From a phage: 49,689 nucleotides of DNA. The first letter of the stretch is position 1. Every line of letters starts with the position of its first letter. The stretch lies in sequence record NC_105788.1. One strand, 5' to 3'. A model generated the notes under the pieces. It did not search any database and was not told where the DNA came from. It saw only the letters and a program-made list of their open reading frames with translations. Both the position numbers and the translations under genes were made by a program. Positions 1 through 49,689 of this stretch are shown here, piece after piece.

Positions 1-44
1 TCAATCATCGACAAGCTGAATCACTACAAAAAGGAGATCGCAAA

Positions 45-749
45 ATGAAGTTGATTTGGTCCCTATTCGACGGTTCCGGTCTTGCAGGTCATGAACTGGC
101 TAAGCAAGGTCACAAGGTGATGTGCTTCAACTTTGACGGAGCCGATCACGGAGATTATGCAAAGTACAATGCCCGAGTGGAGCATCCGAACATTGAGTAT
201 GTGAACGTGTTCATTGACGCAGCGTTTGAGCGTGATGCTATCGCTGGCGTGTATGGCAAGCCGGATTTCATTATGGCCTTCCCGCCGTGCACTGACCTAG
301 CTGTTAGTGGTGCCGCTCACTTCGCAAGAAAGCGTGAACGCGATCCGTTATTCCAGGAGAAGGCTGTTGCCACCGCCCGGATTGCTGCGAACATTGGCGA
401 TAGCCTGGGCGGGACTTACATCATTGAGAATCCGGTAAGCGTCCTGTCGTCTGCGTGGAGAAAACCAAATCACTCCTTCAATCCCTGGGAGTATGGCGGC
501 TATCTTCCTGAGAATGACTCACACCCCTGGTTCCCGATGTATATTGCGCCGCGCGATGCTTACCCGAAGAAAACTTGTCTGTGGACCTCTGACGATTTTG
601 TCATGCCTGAAAGAAAACCTGTAAGCCTGCCTGACGGGTACTCTGCACAGCACAGCAAGCTAGGCGGCAAGTCTGCCAAAACTAAACTGATACGCTCTCT
701 GTCGCCCAGGGGATTTTTTAAAGCGATCGCAAATAGCACTTTTTGTTAA
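45..749 (+). CDS. DNA (cytosine-5)-methyltransferase-like protein (short orphan MTase)
   Basis: ATG with AAGGAG RBS 8 nt upstream; N-terminal LFDGSG (motif I, FxGxG), FPPC (motif IV Pro-Cys), IIENP (motif VI ENV-like); last codons ANSTFC-stop are encoded by the conserved box. Confidence 0.55.
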   Translation: MKLIWSLFDGSGLAGHELAKQGHKVMCFNFDGADHGDYAKYNARVEHPNIEYVNVFIDAAFERDAIAGVYGKPDFIMAFPPCTDLAVSGAAHFARKRERDPLFQEKAVATARIAANIGDSLGGTYIIENPVSVLSSAWRKPNHSFNPWEYGGYLPENDSHPWFPMYIAPRDAYPKKTCLWTSDDFVMPERKPVSLPDGYSAQHSKLGGKSAKTKLIRSLSPRGFFKAIANSTFC

Positions 750-752
750 AAC
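733..752 (+). promoter_or_regulatory. conserved box ATAGCACTTTTTGTTAAAAC, followed by hairpin-free spacer, CATAAT and conserved leader TACCTCATCGAAACGAGA
   Basis: one of about 25 copies of the box; overlaps stop codon of upstream gene. Confidence 0.6.
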
Positions 753-810
753 TCGATCGGTGTGATTTGGCATAATTACCTCATCGAAACGAGATTGAGG
801 AAAAACAAAA

Positions 811-996
811 ATGGCACGTCGCATCACTAAAGACCTTAAAGTTCTGAACAAAGAAAACGTAGTTAAGATCCTGGTTATTTGGGGATACAGCGAAGAGTCA
901 GCAAAGCAGAAGGTCGATGCTGGTTATGACCTGGCTATCAAAGCAATGCCTAACGACGACGCTAAAGGTATTGCAAACTACGTATCTTTCTTCTAA
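811..996 (+). CDS. hypothetical small protein (61 aa)
   Basis: ORF track; ATG 811 preceded by GAGG; sits between two box cassettes. Confidence 0.5.
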   Translation: MARRITKDLKVLNKENVVKILVIWGYSEESAKQKVDAGYDLAIKAMPNDDAKGIANYVSFF

Positions 997-1011
997 TTAA
1001 CGGGCCAGAAA

Positions 1012-1197
1012 ATGAAAACAAAATTAGTTCATAAATCAGAGATCAAGATCGGCGATACTGTGATTCACAACGGAGAGCTTAAAACTGTTGGTAAGGAGTC
1101 GATAACCAAAGATGAATTTATGGGTCTATTGTTGTTCGGCGACTCCTATCGACTTGGTTACAAAATGGTTGAGCTTGTTGAGGATGTAAAATTCTAA
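1012..1197 (+). CDS. hypothetical small protein (61 aa)
   Basis: ORF track; stop immediately followed by box. Confidence 0.5.
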   Translation: MKTKLVHKSEIKIGDTVIHNGELKTVGKESITKDEFMGLLLFGDSYRLGYKMVELVEDVKF

Positions 1198-1217
1198 ATA
1201 GCACTTTTTGTTAAAAC
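1198..1217 (+). promoter_or_regulatory. conserved box ATAGCACTTTTTGTTAAAAC (start of a 65-bp cassette nearly identical to the one upstream of the Dam gene)
   Basis: sequence identity to other copies; followed by CATTAT and TACCTCATCGAAACGAGA leader. Confidence 0.6.
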
Positions 1218-1279
1218 TGCCGGAATGGAATCTGGCATTATTACCTCATCGAAACGAGATACACATCAGGAGCAAGAAA

Positions 1280-1615
1280 ATGAAATACGAAAATCGCGGT
1301 AACGAAATCATCAAAATCGAAAACGGCGTTGAGTACATCATGGTTGCTTGCAAGGTTAACGGAATGGACTCATTCGTTTGGGAAGAAATCAAAACTGAAG
1401 ACAAAGCAGCTAAATTCCTGACCTGTGTTAATCAGCCTGATATGGAACGCGATACCTTCACTCGTTACGGTAAATATGAAATCGTTCGCGAGACTTCCTG
1501 CTTCTGGTGGGTCAAGCCTAACAGCCAGTACAAATTCCCGCGCAAAATCAGCAAGCGCACTATGCGCGAATCTGGCTTCAAGAAAGCATACGCCGCCGAG
1601 TTTGACATTGATTAA
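1280..1615 (+). CDS. hypothetical protein (111 aa)
   Basis: internal ATG of ORF 1208..1615 preceded by CAGGAG RBS; upstream part of ORF is the box cassette. Confidence 0.55.
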   Translation: MKYENRGNEIIKIENGVEYIMVACKVNGMDSFVWEEIKTEDKAAKFLTCVNQPDMERDTFTRYGKYEIVRETSCFWWVKPNSQYKFPRKISKRTMRESGFKKAYAAEFDID

Positions 1616-1634
1616 TAGCACGAATTGCTAAACG
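1615..1634 (+). promoter_or_regulatory. conserved box ATAGCACGAATTGCTAAAC followed by hairpin CCCCGA..TCGGGG and TATAGT
   Basis: box copy overlapping stop TAA of upstream gene. Confidence 0.6.
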
Positions 1635-1689
1635 CCCCGAGTGAGATCGGGGTATAGTTAACACATCAACCAATCAGGAGAATCAACAG

Positions 1690-1920
1690 ATGGCAATTAA
1701 ACACCCCGGGCTGAAGAAGGCAATTCAGCGCGCCAATGATGAGGGATTCATTGTCTACAGAACGCATTACGGTCACATGGGTGGCTTGAAAGAGCATCAT
1801 ACAAAGATTGAGCTTGTCGACTTGTGGGAGGATTACGATACATTCCAGTATATCGCCACGTCTGACGTAGAAGCGCAAGTGAAATACATCAACGACACAA
1901 TTGATAGTTTCAGAGGGTAA
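1690..1920 (+). CDS. hypothetical protein (76 aa)
   Basis: ATG preceded by AACCAATCAGGAG conserved RBS block. Confidence 0.55.
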   Translation: MAIKHPGLKKAIQRANDEGFIVYRTHYGHMGGLKEHHTKIELVDLWEDYDTFQYIATSDVEAQVKYINDTIDSFRG

Positions 1921-1924
1921 TTAT

Positions 1925-2296
1925 ATGTTTAAACAATTCGTAGACCTGGACTTCTCAGCCAGCACGGCAATCCAGACTGACGAGAAAGAAAGCGTAGCGA
2001 TCGAGAACATCGCGCGCAAGATTTACAACAAGCAAGAGAAGGCCGTGAGAGCCGCTCTAAGCGCTTATTATGGTGTAAGTGATGCAATGGAGTGCGTTAA
2101 CCGCGTAACGCGCGTGGTGGACCGTTTGGGTGTGTCTAGTTTCGTCGATAAAGACACTGGAGAGGTAATCATCCAGCTAAACAACCCATCTATGCGTACT
2201 GAGTTAGGCAATATTGCACTGTGGGGAGTTGCTAACTATTCAATCACCGTCAACTCATGTGTAGCGGATCGTGTTAAGGAGGCATTGTATGAATGA
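1925..2296 (+). CDS. hypothetical protein (123 aa)
   Basis: ATG at 1925 with AGAGGG RBS; ORF track 1901..2296 begins at a TTG. Confidence 0.5.
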   Translation: MFKQFVDLDFSASTAIQTDEKESVAIENIARKIYNKQEKAVRAALSAYYGVSDAMECVNRVTRVVDRLGVSSFVDKDTGEVIIQLNNPSMRTELGNIALWGVANYSITVNSCVADRVKEALYE

Positions 2297-2489
2297 TAAT
2301 ATTTACCGCGTAGTTGCGATCTCACGCAAAACGCAAAAGAGTGTGATCGCTTACATGGGTAGTAGCGCCATTGAAGCTACGGATGCCTTCGAATTATTGA
2401 AGAACAACGAGGGATTTATGAACACGTTCCGCGTTCGACTTGAGCGCCTCGAACCTGTTATCATTGATGAAGCGCGAAAGTTATCCTGA
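2289..2489 (+). CDS. hypothetical protein (66 aa)
   Basis: ATG at 2289 with AAGGAGG RBS; 8-nt overlap with upstream gene. Confidence 0.5.
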   Translation: MNDNIYRVVAISRKTQKSVIAYMGSSAIEATDAFELLKNNEGFMNTFRVRLERLEPVIIDEARKLS

Positions 2490-2505
2490 CTGGTTAGGGG
2501 GAATA

Positions 2506-2979
2506 ATGAACCATACTTACAAAATCACAACGAAGTCACCGAAGATTAACGGAAGCACGGTTGCGGCACTAAATAACGCGGCGGCAATTCACGAGAAAAA
2601 CATCATGGAGCGCGTTAAGGCGGCGGTAGGCCGATTCTACGGAATCAACGCAGACATTGCCGACAGCAAACGACTGTTCAAGTATGTGCCAGGCCATCCA
2701 TATAGCCGGATGATTGATATTAAGCACGACAAAGAGCTTGTTAGAATCGGATCGCTTGGCGTTGACGAGTTCGACCACAGCATTAACCTAGTTACGGCAT
2801 ATCAAACGTTGTTAGAATCGGATCGCTTGGCGTTGACGAAAAGCATGATTTGGATTCACACCTTCTACACCGGAAAATTTAACAGCGTTATTCATAAGAG
2901 AGTTTACGAAAGCTACTCTGAAGCTAATAAACAGCATGAAGTTTTAGGTGGAACGCTTAAAGCATATATTCCGGCATAA
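2506..2979 (+). CDS. hypothetical protein (157 aa)
   Basis: ATG 2506 after AGGGGG RBS; contains a 31-bp perfect direct repeat. Confidence 0.5.
   Translation: MNHTYKITTKSPKINGSTVAALNNAAAIHEKNIMERVKAAVGRFYGINADIADSKRLFKYVPGHPYSRMIDIKHDKELVRIGSLGVDEFDHSINLVTAYQTLLESDRLALTKSMIWIHTFYTGKFNSVIHKRVYESYSEANKQHEVLGGTLKAYIPA
2738..2839 (+). repeat. 31-bp perfect direct repeat (TTGTTAGAATCGGATCGCTTGGCGTTGACGA) at about 2738-2768 and 2809-2839
   Basis: read directly; copies 71 bp apart so they are translated in different frames. Confidence 0.7.
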
Positions 2980-15022: not shown

Positions 15023-16885
15023 ATGGCTTTATATAGACGCGGTACGGCATCAATGGATGCAGACGGAACGGTTCACGGAACCGATACAAAATGGAAAGAC
15101 CAACTAGCTCTGATTCGCGTAGGTGCAACTATCGTATTCCTGGAGCAACCAATTAAGCTGGCAGTGATTAGCGATATCGTTAGCGACACTGAATTAAAGG
15201 CTATCTCTACCGACGGTCAAACGGCGGCTAACGGTAAGTATGTGATCCTACTTAACGATTCACTGACTGTAAACGGCTTAGCTCAAAACGTCGCTGAGAC
15301 GCTTCGATACTATCAAAGCAAAGAGACTGAGATTGCCGGGGCAATGGATATCATTGCGAGTCTTGATATGGATAACCTTAACCGCATCGTTGAAGAAATT
15401 AAGGCGAACAAATCAGCCGCTGAATCTGCACAGAATCAAGCGGAACTTGCTCGAGACTCAGCGAATGCAGCACGTGACGAAGCTAAAGCCACCAAAGGAC
15501 AAGTTCAGCAAATTGTTGACGGGGCAGTAGGTAGCATCAATGCAGCAAAAGAACAAGCGATCACAGATGTAGGCTCTAAAGAATCAGCGGCGATTACGCA
15601 CATCGACACGGAAGAGAAAGCAGCCATTAAGGCAATCAATGACGCCAAAGGAGATCTGTCAGGTTACGTTAACAACGCTCAGGCGGCGGCGCAAACTGCA
15701 ACCTCAGCAAAAAACGACGCTCAGGCGGCACGAGACGCAGCGGTAAGATCAAAGGACGCAGCGGCAGTCAGCGCGCAGGAAGCTAAAGACGCAGCAAATA
15801 GCGTTGATGCATCCAATCTTCTTAAGAAGAGTGCCAACCTAAGCGACTTATCAAGTATTGGTGCGGCAATGGAGAATTTAGGTGTAGATAGGTTTGCTCA
15901 ATCTGAGAACAACGGAGAGACGCAGGTAAAAACAAAATCTAAATCAAAATGGATTTTCATAAAAGATAATAGTGATTGGGGGGCTTGGGATAATGCCAGC
16001 AGAAAAGCTATTCCGCTTCCGATTGGTTTCGGTGGCACGGGGCGCGGCGATAACGTCGCCATTTTCAGACAATTTAAATCAAACGGCGATTCACCGGACG
16101 GTGTTATTTTAAAGCAAAATGGTGATGGGTTCGGCGGTATTGGATGGGCCGATAAGAACGATAAGGTACGCTGGCGCGCAGGGATTGACGCCTCGGCGGG
16201 GCACTTTAAATGGTATTCATATGATTCTGCTGGGAACTACCGAGACACCATGCTGGAAATTACAGGGTTAGGTTTAGGCGGTATGGTGTGGTTTCGTGAT
16301 ATGACTGTACGCCCAACGGCAGCAGTTCCAGCGCGGTCTTTCGTACTAAACAATGGCAATGCAAGCGTACCCGCAGACAAACTTCGAACGATGTGGGATA
16401 CGGTTAACATTAACACCAATATCATCTATAAATATTTCGAAAAAGGTAACGGACAGGGTTTTACGATCAACTGGCCTACTACTGGCGGAACGCTGGCGCT
16501 TCAAGGCACGTCAGGGAGAGACTTTAAAAAGAACATTGAAGATGCTGATGTTATTGAGGCTGTAGAACGCATTGAGAAAATGCGAATGGTGCATTACGTG
16601 TATAAGGATGATGAGCAGGAGCGAGTTCGCTTCGGTATCATAGCAGAAGAAGCGGAGGAAATTGCGCCTCAATACATTAAGCATAGGGAAGAGGCATTCG
16701 ATGTTGAGATTGATCCTGAAACAAATGCTGTGATTGGGGAAAAAATTCGAGATCGACCTACTGTAGATAACAACCCAATCGTAATGGACTTGATGGGCTG
16801 CGCGCAGTATGCGATTCGTGAATGTAAGAGAATGGCGGCAGAAATTGAAGAACTCAAGGGGATTATTGAAGAATTGAGGGGGTAG
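15023..16885 (+). CDS. side tail fibre protein with C-terminal intramolecular chaperone (peptidase S74-like) domain
   Basis: Ala/Gln-rich coiled-coil-like central region; C-terminal region typical of auto-cleaving chaperone domains of phage fibres (T5 pb1 / endosialidase-like). Confidence 0.6.
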   Translation: MALYRRGTASMDADGTVHGTDTKWKDQLALIRVGATIVFLEQPIKLAVISDIVSDTELKAISTDGQTAANGKYVILLNDSLTVNGLAQNVAETLRYYQSKETEIAGAMDIIASLDMDNLNRIVEEIKANKSAAESAQNQAELARDSANAARDEAKATKGQVQQIVDGAVGSINAAKEQAITDVGSKESAAITHIDTEEKAAIKAINDAKGDLSGYVNNAQAAAQTATSAKNDAQAARDAAVRSKDAAAVSAQEAKDAANSVDASNLLKKSANLSDLSSIGAAMENLGVDRFAQSENNGETQVKTKSKSKWIFIKDNSDWGAWDNASRKAIPLPIGFGGTGRGDNVAIFRQFKSNGDSPDGVILKQNGDGFGGIGWADKNDKVRWRAGIDASAGHFKWYSYDSAGNYRDTMLEITGLGLGGMVWFRDMTVRPTAAVPARSFVLNNGNASVPADKLRTMWDTVNINTNIIYKYFEKGNGQGFTINWPTTGGTLALQGTSGRDFKKNIEDADVIEAVERIEKMRMVHYVYKDDEQERVRFGIIAEEAEEIAPQYIKHREEAFDVEIDPETNAVIGEKIRDRPTVDNNPIVMDLMGCAQYAIRECKRMAAEIEELKGIIEELRG

Positions 16886-16889
16886 ATGA

Positions 16890-16916
16890 AAGGGGCCAGC
16901 TGGCCCCTTTTTTTTG
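16890..16916 (+). terminator. intrinsic terminator (GGGGCCAGCTGGCCCC + T8)
   Basis: perfect palindromic GC stem followed by T8. Confidence 0.8.
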
Positions 16917-17333
16917 TTAGAACGGAATATCATCATCAAATGTTGACTGAGGATTTGGCTGTGGCTGTGATTGAGTTCGCTGTTGTTGCTGAGGTGCTCG
17001 TTGTTGCTGGTTGCTTTGTCCTCTCTGACTGAATACCAGCTTAGGAAAATCAGCAGCCTGCAATGAATTGTAAATCATTCCGTTGTGCTCACGTGATGAG
17101 ATCCTCAACGTCTCGCACGATACTGAGATTACTCTACCAACCTGGAACGCATCACGATACCAGTCAGCGAGACCAGGCTTCCCACCGTCGCTAAAAAAGA
17201 ATGTGTAGTTGGTGTATTCGCGATCGCCATCACGCGGCTTATAGCTTTCTGACAGTTCGATTATGTAAGTATTGCCGCCGTTACGTTCCAGAATCTTCGG
17301 TTCTTTGCGGATCTCTCCAGTGATAATATGCAT
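16917..17333 (-). CDS. ssb: single-stranded DNA-binding protein
   Basis: Gln/Pro-rich linker and hallmark acidic C-terminal tail DDDIPF. Confidence 0.75.
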   Translation of the reverse strand: MHIITGEIRKEPKILERNGGNTYIIELSESYKPRDGDREYTNYTFFFSDGGKPGLADWYRDAFQVGRVISVSCETLRISSREHNGMIYNSLQAADFPKLVFSQRGQSNQQQRAPQQQQRTQSQPQPNPQSTFDDDIPF

Positions 17334-19329: not shown

Positions 19330-19615
19330 TGCGTAACACTTGTAACCGCTTTTTCTTAGAAATACACAGATATCCATGAATAGAATCCCGATCGATTAAA
19401 TTTTGAGCATATATGATAGAAATTTGACGAATCAATCAAATCACCTGTTACACGATAGACAACTGTTACACAACAATAATTATATATATAAAGCTAAAAT
19501 TAAATATTATCTATCTATATGTATTATATAGAGTTTTTATCATATCTCCCTGCGGTCGGATGGGGTCGATTTTGTAACACCACCTCCAGTTACAAAAATA
19601 GACACCTGTTACACG
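19330..19615. repeat. AT-rich region with at least 5 copies of TGTTACA(C) / TGTAACA in both orientations
   Basis: read directly; divergent intergenic region between exonuclease and cor-like gene. Confidence 0.5.
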
Positions 19616-46353: not shown

Positions 46354-46499
46354 CGTTTAACGCACATCGTTTTTACTTCGTATCCGAACGGCTTGTTCTC
46401 TGAAATCACCTCCCGAGCCTTGTTGCATGATTGTTGGCTTTCCATGTATACGTGTTCTGGCCCGGTACTCATCAAGATAATCAAAATCCACGCCGCCAT
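46350..46499 (-). CDS. small protein with hydrophobic N-terminus (49 aa, below ORF-track cutoff)
   Basis: manual translation MAAWILIILMSTGPEHVYMESQQSCNK...; GAGGTGA RBS; TAATG overlap with upstream gene; stop TAG inside box; coordinates approximate. Confidence 0.4.
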   Translation of the reverse strand: MAAWILIILMSTGPEHVYMESQQSCNKAREVISENKPFGYEVKTMCVKR

Positions 46500-47005
46500 T
46501 ATTTCACCTCATAGCGTACAAGTGTTCCGCGCTTAACGCTTATTTCACCTGATACCGTTTTGTGCTTAAAGCTGCCGTAATGCAATAGGAGAATCACTAC
46601 ATCATCATGCACCTCAATAGTTTTAGGTGTGGCGGTAATCTCGATCCAGGATTCGCTATCAAGTTGAACGCCCTTTAGCGTAGCGCTCAATGGCATGTTC
46701 TCGATCTGAGTGCATTGTAACATCGGTTTAATTTCTGGCTTTGCGGGGTGGAAGATGGATCGATCAGTTTTCCAACCATCATACTTTCCGTACGAATCCT
46801 GACTACCACTAATAATGTAATGGTAATCCTTCTTGTCTGAGTTTTCAGGATTTACTTCATTGTGCCGATTGATAAACCAATCCAACTTAAGCTGAGACAC
46901 CTCATCAGTGGCCCACTTGCCTTTATCTTCACTGGTGAATGTAATTTCACCGCAACCCAGGCTGATAAATTTAATCGGGAATTTTACGTCTTCTAATTTT
47001 AACAT
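46499..47005 (-). CDS. hypothetical protein (168 aa)
   Basis: ORF track; AGAGGAA RBS. Confidence 0.5.
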   Translation of the reverse strand: MLKLEDVKFPIKFISLGCGEITFTSEDKGKWATDEVSQLKLDWFINRHNEVNPENSDKKDYHYIISGSQDSYGKYDGWKTDRSIFHPAKPEIKPMLQCTQIENMPLSATLKGVQLDSESWIEITATPKTIEVHDDVVILLLHYGSFKHKTVSGEISVKRGTLVRYEVK

Positions 47006-48109: not shown

Positions 48110-48304
48110 TTAAGCCTCCGCAAAGTAAGTGTTAAAGCCTTTGAGTTTATAGTCGCTGCCTACGCGCACCACGTTCCAGGTGAGGCCCGAGTGATATGCA
48201 ACCATATCCTCAAGGTCGATCGTGATTTCCGTTCCTTTCTTGAACAAACCCTTTTCATGAGTTGAGTCTCGCTGAACAACCACTACGTCAAGTTGCGTTT
48301 CCAT
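48110..48304 (-). CDS. hypothetical protein (64 aa)
   Basis: ORF track; AAGGAA RBS. Confidence 0.45.
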   Translation of the reverse strand: METQLDVVVVQRDSTHEKGLFKKGTEITIDLEDMVAYHSGLTWNVVRVGSDYKLKGFNTYFAEA

Positions 48305-48359
48305 CTTCGTTTCCTTATTCGTTGTCGATGGGATAACTATACCAGGTTATCCCGATCCG

Positions 48360-48379
48360 GTTTTAACAAAAAGTGCTAT
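48360..48379 (-). promoter_or_regulatory. conserved box (minus strand ATAGCACTTTTTGTTAAAAC)
   Basis: box copy after first gene of minus early arm. Confidence 0.6.
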
Positions 48380-48393
48380 TTACCTCTCAGCGC

Positions 48394-48909
48394 TTACAGT
48401 CCACACTTTTCGATATGCGCTTTCATCTGGCGCACGATCTCATTTACATCACGAACCATTAACTCGCTGTCGCTCAGCTTGCTAACATCAACATCAAACG
48501 AGTCCAGGCAATCAGCCAAGCTAACTTTTTTCCGGCTGCGGCGCTTCTTCACCGGAACCTCTTCGTCGGTAACGATAACGGTTATCATCGTGATTGCCGC
48601 GTCATTCCGGCCTACCTTCACCTTTGCCACCTTGCCATACTTGCAAAAGTGTCGGGTAATGATCGGAGTGATGAAAGCGGACTTGAATCTCTTCTCTACC
48701 TCCCCCTGGTTCTGGTCAACCCATCCGGCAGCGGCAGATTCAAGATCGGCATCGCTTACCTCCTGGCCCCGAAAGTAGAATCGCGCTGCTTCTAGGGCCA
48801 TATCATCAGCCACGAAAGAGAACTCATTCATGCCTTTGTCGCGGTACATTGCATCGCAGGTTAGTCGAATCATGTCGGTGATTTTTAATTCCTGATTGGT
48901 ATTGCTCAT
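48394..48909 (-). CDS. hypothetical protein (171 aa), first gene of minus-strand early arm
   Basis: ORF track; directly downstream of AT-rich regulatory hub. Confidence 0.5.
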   Translation of the reverse strand: MSNTNQELKITDMIRLTCDAMYRDKGMNEFSFVADDMALEAARFYFRGQEVSDADLESAAAGWVDQNQGEVEKRFKSAFITPIITRHFCKYGKVAKVKVGRNDAAITMITVIVTDEEVPVKKRRSRKKVSLADCLDSFDVDVSKLSDSELMVRDVNEIVRQMKAHIEKCGL

Positions 48910-48929
48910 AATATGCTCTCTTTGTCTAT

Positions 48930-49300
48930 TGGTGTGTAAATGGTGTCATAACATGTCAACAATTGCCATTGTGACAGAGCGACGTAGAGCTGTCAACGAC
49001 TGCAAGCCAATTTTAAGCCGTGTAATATTTGTCTAGCCGTCTAGAGTCACTATAGAAATATATAGCCCTCAAAAAAGTACTGTATATATAAACATGCAGA
49101 TAGAAATATGCCAGCAGTACGCTAGACAATGTAAGACGGCTATACACAACTATTACAATATAATTATCTATATATATAAATAAAAAAAACACTATATATA
49201 TTATATATATACATATATCTATATGTCTATTGTGATGCGTCACAGTGCGTAATTTTGTCACAAGTGCGATTCTAGACAAATATTACAGTCGTGACAAGTT
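48930..49300. promoter_or_regulatory. AT-rich divergent control region with inverted repeats (TAATATTTGTCTAG ... CTAGACAAATATTA) and repeated TGTCAC/GTGACA motifs
   Basis: read directly; separates divergent early transcription units. Confidence 0.5.
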
Positions 49301-49312
49301 AAAGTGTAATCG

Positions 49313-49332
49313 ATAGCACGTTTTGCTAAAAA
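49313..49332 (+). promoter_or_regulatory. conserved box ATAGCACGTTTTGCTAAAAA
   Basis: box copy. Confidence 0.55.
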
Positions 49333-49517
49333 TGGAGATGACTACCAGGCGAACCGGGTAACACTAAATCCTCCCTCTCACAATCATTGCATTCTAAGCA
49401 ACAATCACATCAACAGTTGCACACCATGCAACAATCGCATTTCATCATTCGAGATCAATCGGGATCGCAATTATTCCAGATATTCCATTGCTGGTGGAAT
49501 AATGAGCAACTATTGGA

Positions 49518-49537
49518 ATAGCATTTTTTGCTAACGA
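49518..49537 (+). promoter_or_regulatory. conserved box ATAGCATTTTTTGCTAACGA followed 23 nt later by TATGAT and AACCAATCAGAGGA RBS block
   Basis: box copy. Confidence 0.55.
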
Positions 49538-49592
49538 TTTGGTCAGGCTGGCAGGGTATGATTCATATCATCAACCAATCAGAGGAATCGAC

Positions 49593-49689
49593 ATGAATAT
49601 TGCAAACATCAACGCAGCCATTAATCGTTACGAACACATCTATCGCGTAGCTCTGTTCTCTGACATGGCGCTAGCCAACAAGTCGAAGT
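49593..49689 (+). CDS. 5' fragment of an early gene truncated by window end
   Basis: ATG preceded by AACCAATCAGAGGA; open to end of window (MNIANINAAINRYEHIYRVALFSDMALANKSK...). Confidence 0.4.
   Translation, partial: MNIANINAAINRYEHIYRVALFSDMALANKSK

Follow-up and report, generated by a model that had tools for sequence, protein, structure and literature searches.

Which functions are gathered in the 683 bases that lie between two outward-facing gene arms of this phage genome, and do they belong to one element? The region (48910-49592) is part of a stretch of 49,689 nucleotides (NC_105788.1), which was analysed as a whole and is called the window here. Region and flanks were 100% identical to Escherichia phage CLB_P3 (OL770108.1; Tunavirus, Drexlerviridae), and the window is that genome rotated. 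The gene boundaries of the initial annotation held, with the minus-strand gene starting at 48909 and the plus-strand ATG at 49593. The junction from window 49689 to window 1 has 32 bases missing; thus the plus-strand gene at 49593, which had been called truncated, is the first gene of its arm and continues at the window start. A non-coding gap of 590-800 bp, whose size varies with each record's annotation of the flanking genes, was kept in all 19 related genomes examined, including Klebsiella phages of the same family. In each of them a minus-strand arm lies on one side and a plus-strand arm on the other, both consisting of small genes.

T1-like phages often turn up as contaminants in laboratories; they are also therapy candidates and perform generalised transduction. 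Elements of the present kind are known: the region is a T1-type control region of the genome end. Its homologue in coliphage T1 (NC_005833, 1-538 and 48675-48836) is the left end of the genome with the pac region, at 91% identity in the right half and 90% in the AT-rich core, and T1 shares with CLB_P3 the orphan box, the palindrome, the TATTCCA block, the promoter and the gene order. T1 differs in carrying another allele of the first gene and of the left core flank, the first-gene proteins being only 53% identical, and in being without about 2 kb of the plus-arm genes found in CLB_P3.

On balance we favor a joint explanation, in which the region would be the non-coding hub of T1-like phages (Drexlerviridae) between two outward-facing arms of small genes and would consist of two separately evolving parts. 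Comparison between genomes gives good support to a role in both divergent transcription and the start of packaging. In the papers searched, we found neither the division into an invariant packaging and plus-arm half and a lineage-specific half nor the co-variation of the repeats with the first early gene. Literature searches on transcriptomes or origins of T1-like phages returned nothing relevant, and no transcription map for these phages was found.

The division became apparent when 17 Tunavirus regions were aligned. The right part (49305-49545) was 83-94% identical to CLB_P3 across every lineage, and the right half as a whole (about 49305-49592) was partly recognisable even in Klebsiella relatives. 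Meanwhile, the left part (48910-49300) was 93% identical within the type of CLB_P3, 53% identical to the T1 type and 41% identical to the AV106/DELF2 type. Six types of the left half were seen, including three that came from an IMG/VR contig and two phages of Klebsiella. When IMG/VR was scanned with a conserved 18-mer, most matches were known phages or due to chance, and one new lineage type (L032) emerged. The features of both halves are collected in Table 1.

Table 1. Features in and next to the region, in window coordinates.
Feature	Position	Strand	Description
First minus-arm gene	48394..48909	-	171 aa, phrog_11083, no Pfam family
Sigma-70-type minus-arm promoter (putative)	48968..48996	-	TTGACA, 17 nt, CACAAT with upstream TG
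Inverted repeat, left arm	49021..49036		contains TGTCTAG; second GTCTAG follows at 49039-49044
LexA-box-like TACTGTATATATAAACATGC	49078..49097	+	CTGT-N8-ACAT; conserved in CLB and T1 types
AT-rich TATA core	49150..49235		GC 12.8%
Inverted repeat, right arm	49272..49287		overlaps promoter-like hexamers on both strands (49255+, 49297-)
Orphan box 1, ATAGCACGTTTTGCTAAAA	49313..49331	+	kept in 17 of 17 aligned Tunavirus except for one variable position (G or T)
Direct repeats and palindrome	49398..49440	+	GCAACAATCACAT (49398-49410) and GCAACAATCGCAT (49428-49440) flank GTTGCA-cacca-TGCAAC (49416-49432)
GATC, two copies	49453..49466		at 49453 and 49463; the region's only two; AATCAAT/CAATCA instead in many relatives
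TATTCCA/TGGAATA block	49472..49520		TATTCCA twice (49472, 49481), then TGGAATA twice (49495, 49514); most widely conserved block
Plus-arm promoter module (putative)	49518..49592	+	box 2, 20 nt, TATGAT (49557-49562), leader CATCAACCAATCAGAGGAAT (49569-49588), ATG 49593

That the region might hold a packaging signal, as had been suggested at the outset, was borne out indirectly, and the evidence points to the right half. Position 1 of T1 corresponds to window position 49432, and three T1 records begin at that equivalent base. T1 records also annotate 1..2800 as a repeat region, which we read as the terminal redundancy of packaged DNA. Position 49432 lies at the edge of the palindrome GTTGCAcaccaTGCAAC, and the first bases of T1, GTTGCATGGTGTGCAAC, are the reverse complement of this palindrome at 49416-49432. 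Two GCAACAATCRCAT repeats flank it. The direct repeat GCAACAATC(A/G)CAT noticed earlier was indeed present, and its copies at 49398 and 49428 are the only two in the window. At the same place Klebsiella phages carry a palindrome of the form TTGC..GCAA with different outer arms.

Several records starting at 49432 were probably just aligned to T1. Those with a coordinate other than that of T1 end nearby, namely IME167 at 49344, IME347 at about 49349, SH2 at 49364 and Shfl1 at 49378. Four record ends within 90 bp are hard to explain by chance in genomes of 50 kb, and a short run of imprecise first cuts would fit them. A study of a T1-like phage likewise placed the pac of T1 and its relatives in this untranslated region (PMC7718038). 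We therefore infer that headful packaging may start in the right part, which is nearly alike in all lineages: by homology to T1, the first cut would fall at or near 49432, beside the small palindrome and its flanking repeats, and packaging would proceed from there toward lower window coordinates. The analysis narrows the likely packaging start to a conserved interval of about 90 bp with a defined palindrome, apart from the lineage-specific module.

Two groups of short motifs in the right half could serve as recognition elements for the terminase. One comprises four copies of CAATC on one strand at 49381-49456. The other is the TATTCCA/TGGAATA block, which accounts for 4 of the 12 copies in the window and is the only piece that a DNA search still detects in Drexlerviridae of Klebsiella and Enterobacter, at 81-85% identity. 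The small and large terminase subunits were 98-100% identical across all left-half types (98-99% for TerS), and this near-invariance is consistent with packaging from a site in the invariant right half. An invariant small terminase would then recognise the conserved CAATC and TATTCCA/TGGAATA repeats.

The sites named pac in P22, SPP1 and P1 are start sites of headful packaging, and that of P1 is Dam-dependent. The candidate site here resembles them in having a short cleavage zone beside repeated short motifs and a unidirectional headful series, and T1 also carries an annotated small terminase similar to P22 gp3. Unlike the P22-type pac, which lies inside or adjoining terS, the presumed packaging site is intergenic and about 8.4 kb from terS in T1, and a search for a P22-pac-like sequence found none. 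Because the GATC sites of CLB_P3 are not conserved, a methylation control of the P1 kind is unlikely.

The right half also contains the elements that would drive the plus arm. Both box copies listed in the initial annotation were recovered, at 49313 with 0 mismatches and at 49518 with 3 mismatches to ATAGCACNNNTTGNTAAAA. The box is the 21-nt repeat aaATAGCACnnnTTGnTAAAA of TLS, T1, Rtp and Rogue1, the function of which was listed as an open question (PMC11447400). There are 30 box matches in the window against about 2 expected, and nearly all gene-linked copies are oriented with transcription, as are both boxes of the region. About 20 copies across the genome form a module consisting of the box, about 19 nt, a -10-like hexamer often following TG, a conserved leader (CATCGAAACGA... 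or CAACCAATCAGAGGAAT), a ribosome-binding site and a start codon. Examples were seen at 733, 1198, 6158, 10933, 42895, 44268, 47622 and 48361, and many of the modules had a hairpin of variable sequence straddling the -10, such as GGGATAAC..GTTATCCC at 48361. As the TTGnTA of the box is 22 nt away from the -10, which is too far for a normal -35, the box may act as an UP-like element or a factor-binding site.

Box 2 has all parts of this module, with the ATG 75 nt from the start of the box, and it is this box, -10 and leader arrangement that would drive the plus arm. Box 1, which agrees with the consensus only, is the sole perfect box of the genome that lacks both a -10 about 19 nt downstream and a gene. 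In these two respects it differs from the 21-nt repeats of TLS and other T1-like phages.

On the opposite side, the minus arm would be driven by a host sigma-70 promoter close to consensus, located in the lineage-specific left part (48910 to about 49300). This promoter reads TTGACA-17-(TGt)CACAAT, lies 58 nt upstream of the ATG of the gene, and agrees with sigma-70 promoters in hexamers, spacer and distance. The same element is annotated as a promoter in SA12KD and SA30RD. Its position was kept in four lineage types despite sequence divergence, at 45-61 nt from the ATG in T1, AV106 and SXFY507, and the T1 type has TTGACA-17-AACACT with TG. Promoter-like matches over the whole region numbered 5 against 3.8 +/- 1.5 expected, which is not above chance in AT-rich DNA. 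Together with the plus-arm module, the minus-arm promoter gives in silico support to the earlier proposal of divergent transcription from this region. The timing of this transcription is assumed to be early from the biology of T1.

An inverted repeat pair of 15 bp had been described in the left half. The pair is real but perfect over 16 nt, with TGTAATATTTGTCTAG at 49021-49036, CTAGACAAATATTACA at 49272-49287 and 235 nt between the arms; the strings and positions quoted previously were 1-2 nt off. Among the spaced perfect inverted repeats of the window it is the longest; first-order Markov simulation reached such a length once in 2000 runs for the region and once in 60 runs for the whole window. 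Most relatives of the same type match at 15 of 16 positions, with a T-to-C change in the left arm and no compensating change in the other. Hence conservation does not extend to exact pairing of the two arms. Nor does the repeat simply separate the two gene arms, as had been thought; it is the outer pair of a set of lineage-specific short repeats around the AT-rich core.

These short repeats differ in sequence between lineages and occupy roughly equivalent positions, mostly forward on one side of the core and reversed on the other. The core-flanking repeat is TGTCTA(G) in CLB_P3, GTTAATCG in T1, TGCAACC in AV106/DELF2, GGTAA in KMI8, TGTTCA/ATGAAC in SXFY507 and GTTCT/AGAAC in L032. The T1 type has three tandem copies of GTTAATCG at the position of the left arm, and inverted copies besides around the core; for the AV106 type, TGCAACCG can be named alongside TGTAATATTTGTCTAG and GTTAATCG. 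The enrichment was strong for TGTCTA in the region of CLB_P3 (5 found versus 0.18 expected) and for GTTAATC in that of T1 (6 versus 0.16), and weaker for the repeat of AV106 (3 versus 0.20). Each repeat is missing from the other types with one exception, as TGTCTA occurs three times in AV106.

A further motif, TGTCAC/GTGACA, had been counted about six times in the region. It was still enriched, at 3 found versus 0.18 expected, with exact copies at 48971 (-), 49256 (+) and 49291 (-) and 13 in the window; the count of six was reached only with the looser TGTCA. One of the exact copies coincides with the TG plus -10 of the minus-arm promoter, and the remaining two lie on either side of the right repeat arm.

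A change of repeats from lineage to lineage raises the question of which protein changes with them. When 79 kept ORFs were compared among six genomes (two for each of three types), only the first minus-arm gene, 48394..48909, followed the type, its product being 94% identical within a type and at most 56% identical between types. A 168-aa product of 46499..47005 (-) followed the type in part, with 95% identity in IME18, 79-80% in AV106/DELF2 and 63-65% in T1/LHE71, and the intervening genes did not. No co-variation with the repeats was observed in these six genomes for the primase, both helicases, the ST23-like regulator or the terminase. The 171-aa protein differs between lineages in its N-terminal half and has a C-terminal part (KKRRSRKK...VRQMKAHIEKCGL) common to the types. 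In recombinants such as pSf-2 and ULIM2, the N-terminal half still matched the neighboring DNA. It should be pointed out that the N-terminal half of the gene abuts the left region, so that linkage alone could give this co-variation. The 171-aa protein gave no significant fold or family match and showed neither a helix-turn-helix nor a known initiator fold.

The 171-aa protein would be the most likely reader of the lineage repeats and is a candidate DNA-binding protein, a hypothesis that draws on sequence comparison. In the mechanism that we propose, the short repeats around the AT-rich core, upstream of the minus-arm promoter and with a sequence that changes by lineage at equivalent positions (here TGTCTAG), would be bound by a phage protein whose specificity matches them, most probably this adjacent first-gene product. 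Its binding would modulate the early promoters that the repeat arms overlap or adjoin. Extended to the family, a fast-evolving first early protein and the lineage repeats might form a specificity-swapping end module of Drexlerviridae with at least six specificities, acting beside the packaging start either as an origin or as the main switch for early transcription; we regard this wider proposal as tentative and rather doubtful. Lambdoid immunity regions and iteron origins likewise have short sites that vary by lineage with the N-terminal part of the adjacent protein in an otherwise constant module. The CLB_P3 module differs from them in that its protein is without a helix-turn-helix or an initiator fold and would bind only hypothetically, and in that the phage is virulent. 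One candidate protein-site pair is thus named, which, like the packaging interval, offers a target for work on packaging signals in transducing vectors and on locating the origin.

Shigella phage vB_SsoS_008 (SsoS_008, L012) is informative with regard to this pair. Its first minus-arm gene (311-815) extends over two frames and is annotated as an 89-aa stub, the right arm of the inverted repeat is partly deleted, and a T1-type leader fragment is inserted beside the CLB-type region. Either SsoS_008 arose naturally by recombination and carries a dead gene, or its sequence contains an error. Since gene and right arm are both damaged, they may constitute a functional but dispensable pair, which argues against an essential initiator.

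Several other explanations of the region have to be weighed against the joint one. The packaging site could lie elsewhere, position 1 of T1 and the record ends being conventions or assembly breakpoints, with the right half kept for the promoter and operator of the plus arm. Many records are in fact explicitly oriented to T1 (e.g. KanT1), and fragmentary assemblies break within the AT-rich core. PhageTerm found no clear termini in KanT1, a Tunavirus (PMC13164509), and several candidate ends in SU57, while the pac assignment in TLS was based on restriction mapping and resemblance to the P22 pac. Nevertheless, the repeat region of the T1 record begins exactly at its position 1, the four records that do not share this coordinate end no more than 90 bp away in 50-kb genomes, and the study of PMC7718038 placed pac here. 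A plus-arm promoter alone also does not explain the orphan box and the palindrome with its flanking repeats, and we consider a packaging site elsewhere unlikely. A reading of the left half as a replication origin stands slightly better, as possible though not probable. Here the adjacent 171-aa protein would be the initiator that binds the lineage repeats and melts the TATA core. The TATA-rich core reported initially was confirmed, with 12.8% GC at 49150-49235 and 22 of the 44 TATATA matches of the window falling in the region, and short repeats on both sides of such an 86-bp stretch make an origin-like layout. The core is retained by all six left-half types, and its identity between the CLB and T1 types is 86-90% despite their unrelated flanks, which suggests a constraint of its own. 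For T1-like phages the TLS paper (PMC11447400) identified no origin and reports no iterons elsewhere. Several points weigh on the other side. SsoS_008 was isolated and propagated although its candidate initiator gene is interrupted; the repeats change between types without a matching change in the primase, the helicases or the ST23-like regulator; and consensus sites for DnaA, IHF and Fis were all absent from the region. GC skew is confounded by gene orientation, and the stretch at window 19348-19547 is equally poor in GC (25% over 200 bp). Compared with iterons, the enriched repeats do flank the GC-poor core, but their copies are few and only 6-8 nt long.

Coding, RNA or mobile-element readings of the same DNA are much less probable than either of these. 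Conservation through a small protein or a structured RNA, which we consider very unlikely, would agree with the two CDSs that the CLB_P3 record annotates in the region and with the folding of the repeat-bounded segment as a single strand, which was modestly better than that of shuffles (z -2.84). Both annotated ORFs are broken in relatives, however. The ORF at 49013..49279 (-), which the initial annotation had suspected to be spurious, is frameshifted or stopped in EF3-1, Sfin-3, pSf-2, Eco_BIFF and SA30RD, and the CLB_P3-annotated ORF at 49387..49521 (+) has in-frame stops in 12 of 16 aligned relatives and was rejected as spurious as well. Rfam gave 0 matches at E <=1 over 48300-49689. A further coding candidate is a 12-codon ORF at 49326..49364 (-) (MLPGSPGSHLHF), which overlaps the orphan box and lies 4 nt after a strong GGAGGA ribosome-binding site (49369-49374). 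T1 retains this ORF, altered by a synonymous change, and Klebsiella phage KMI8 has a related frame, but a hand count on the alignment gave about 8 non-synonymous versus 6 synonymous changes, which is not decisive. Least credible of all is a miniature transposable element spanning 49021-49287 (267 bp), or a chance origin of the repeat in AT-rich DNA. Perfect 16-bp terminal inverted repeats around a 235-bp AT-rich interior without a real ORF do have the appearance of such an element. Yet the segment is single-copy in the phage, no target-site duplication is present at its flanks, no match was found in 5,426 complete E. coli genomes, and all relatives carry a homologous or analogous segment in this location; the probability of the repeat by chance is about 0.0005 for the region. 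On these grounds the mobile-element reading was rejected.

Some further features were observed beside these. The LexA-like site at 49078 gave the top score of the window, 17.0 bits, and the top score in T1 was 19.9, both against a matrix compiled from E. coli sites; in that matrix, real sites range from 14.1 to 26.6 bits, so that 17.0 falls inside. The LexA (SOS) box is a CTGT-N8-ACAG palindrome. As one arm of the 49078 site is ACAT and not ACAG, the palindrome is incomplete and the site was not accepted as a true LexA box.

In the minus arm, the second gene at 48110-48304 (-) encodes 64 aa and matched the Pfam family PF25180, 'Phage antiviral trigger protein Gp54', with an E value of 1.8e-35. 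This gene was present in the CLB and AV106 types and missing from T1 and LHE71. Far from the region, a perfect 22-nt palindrome, AAAGGGGCCAGCTGGCCCCTTT, was found at 16889-16910 between the ends of the ORFs 15023..16885 (+) and 16917..17333 (-), where it is probably a two-way terminator.
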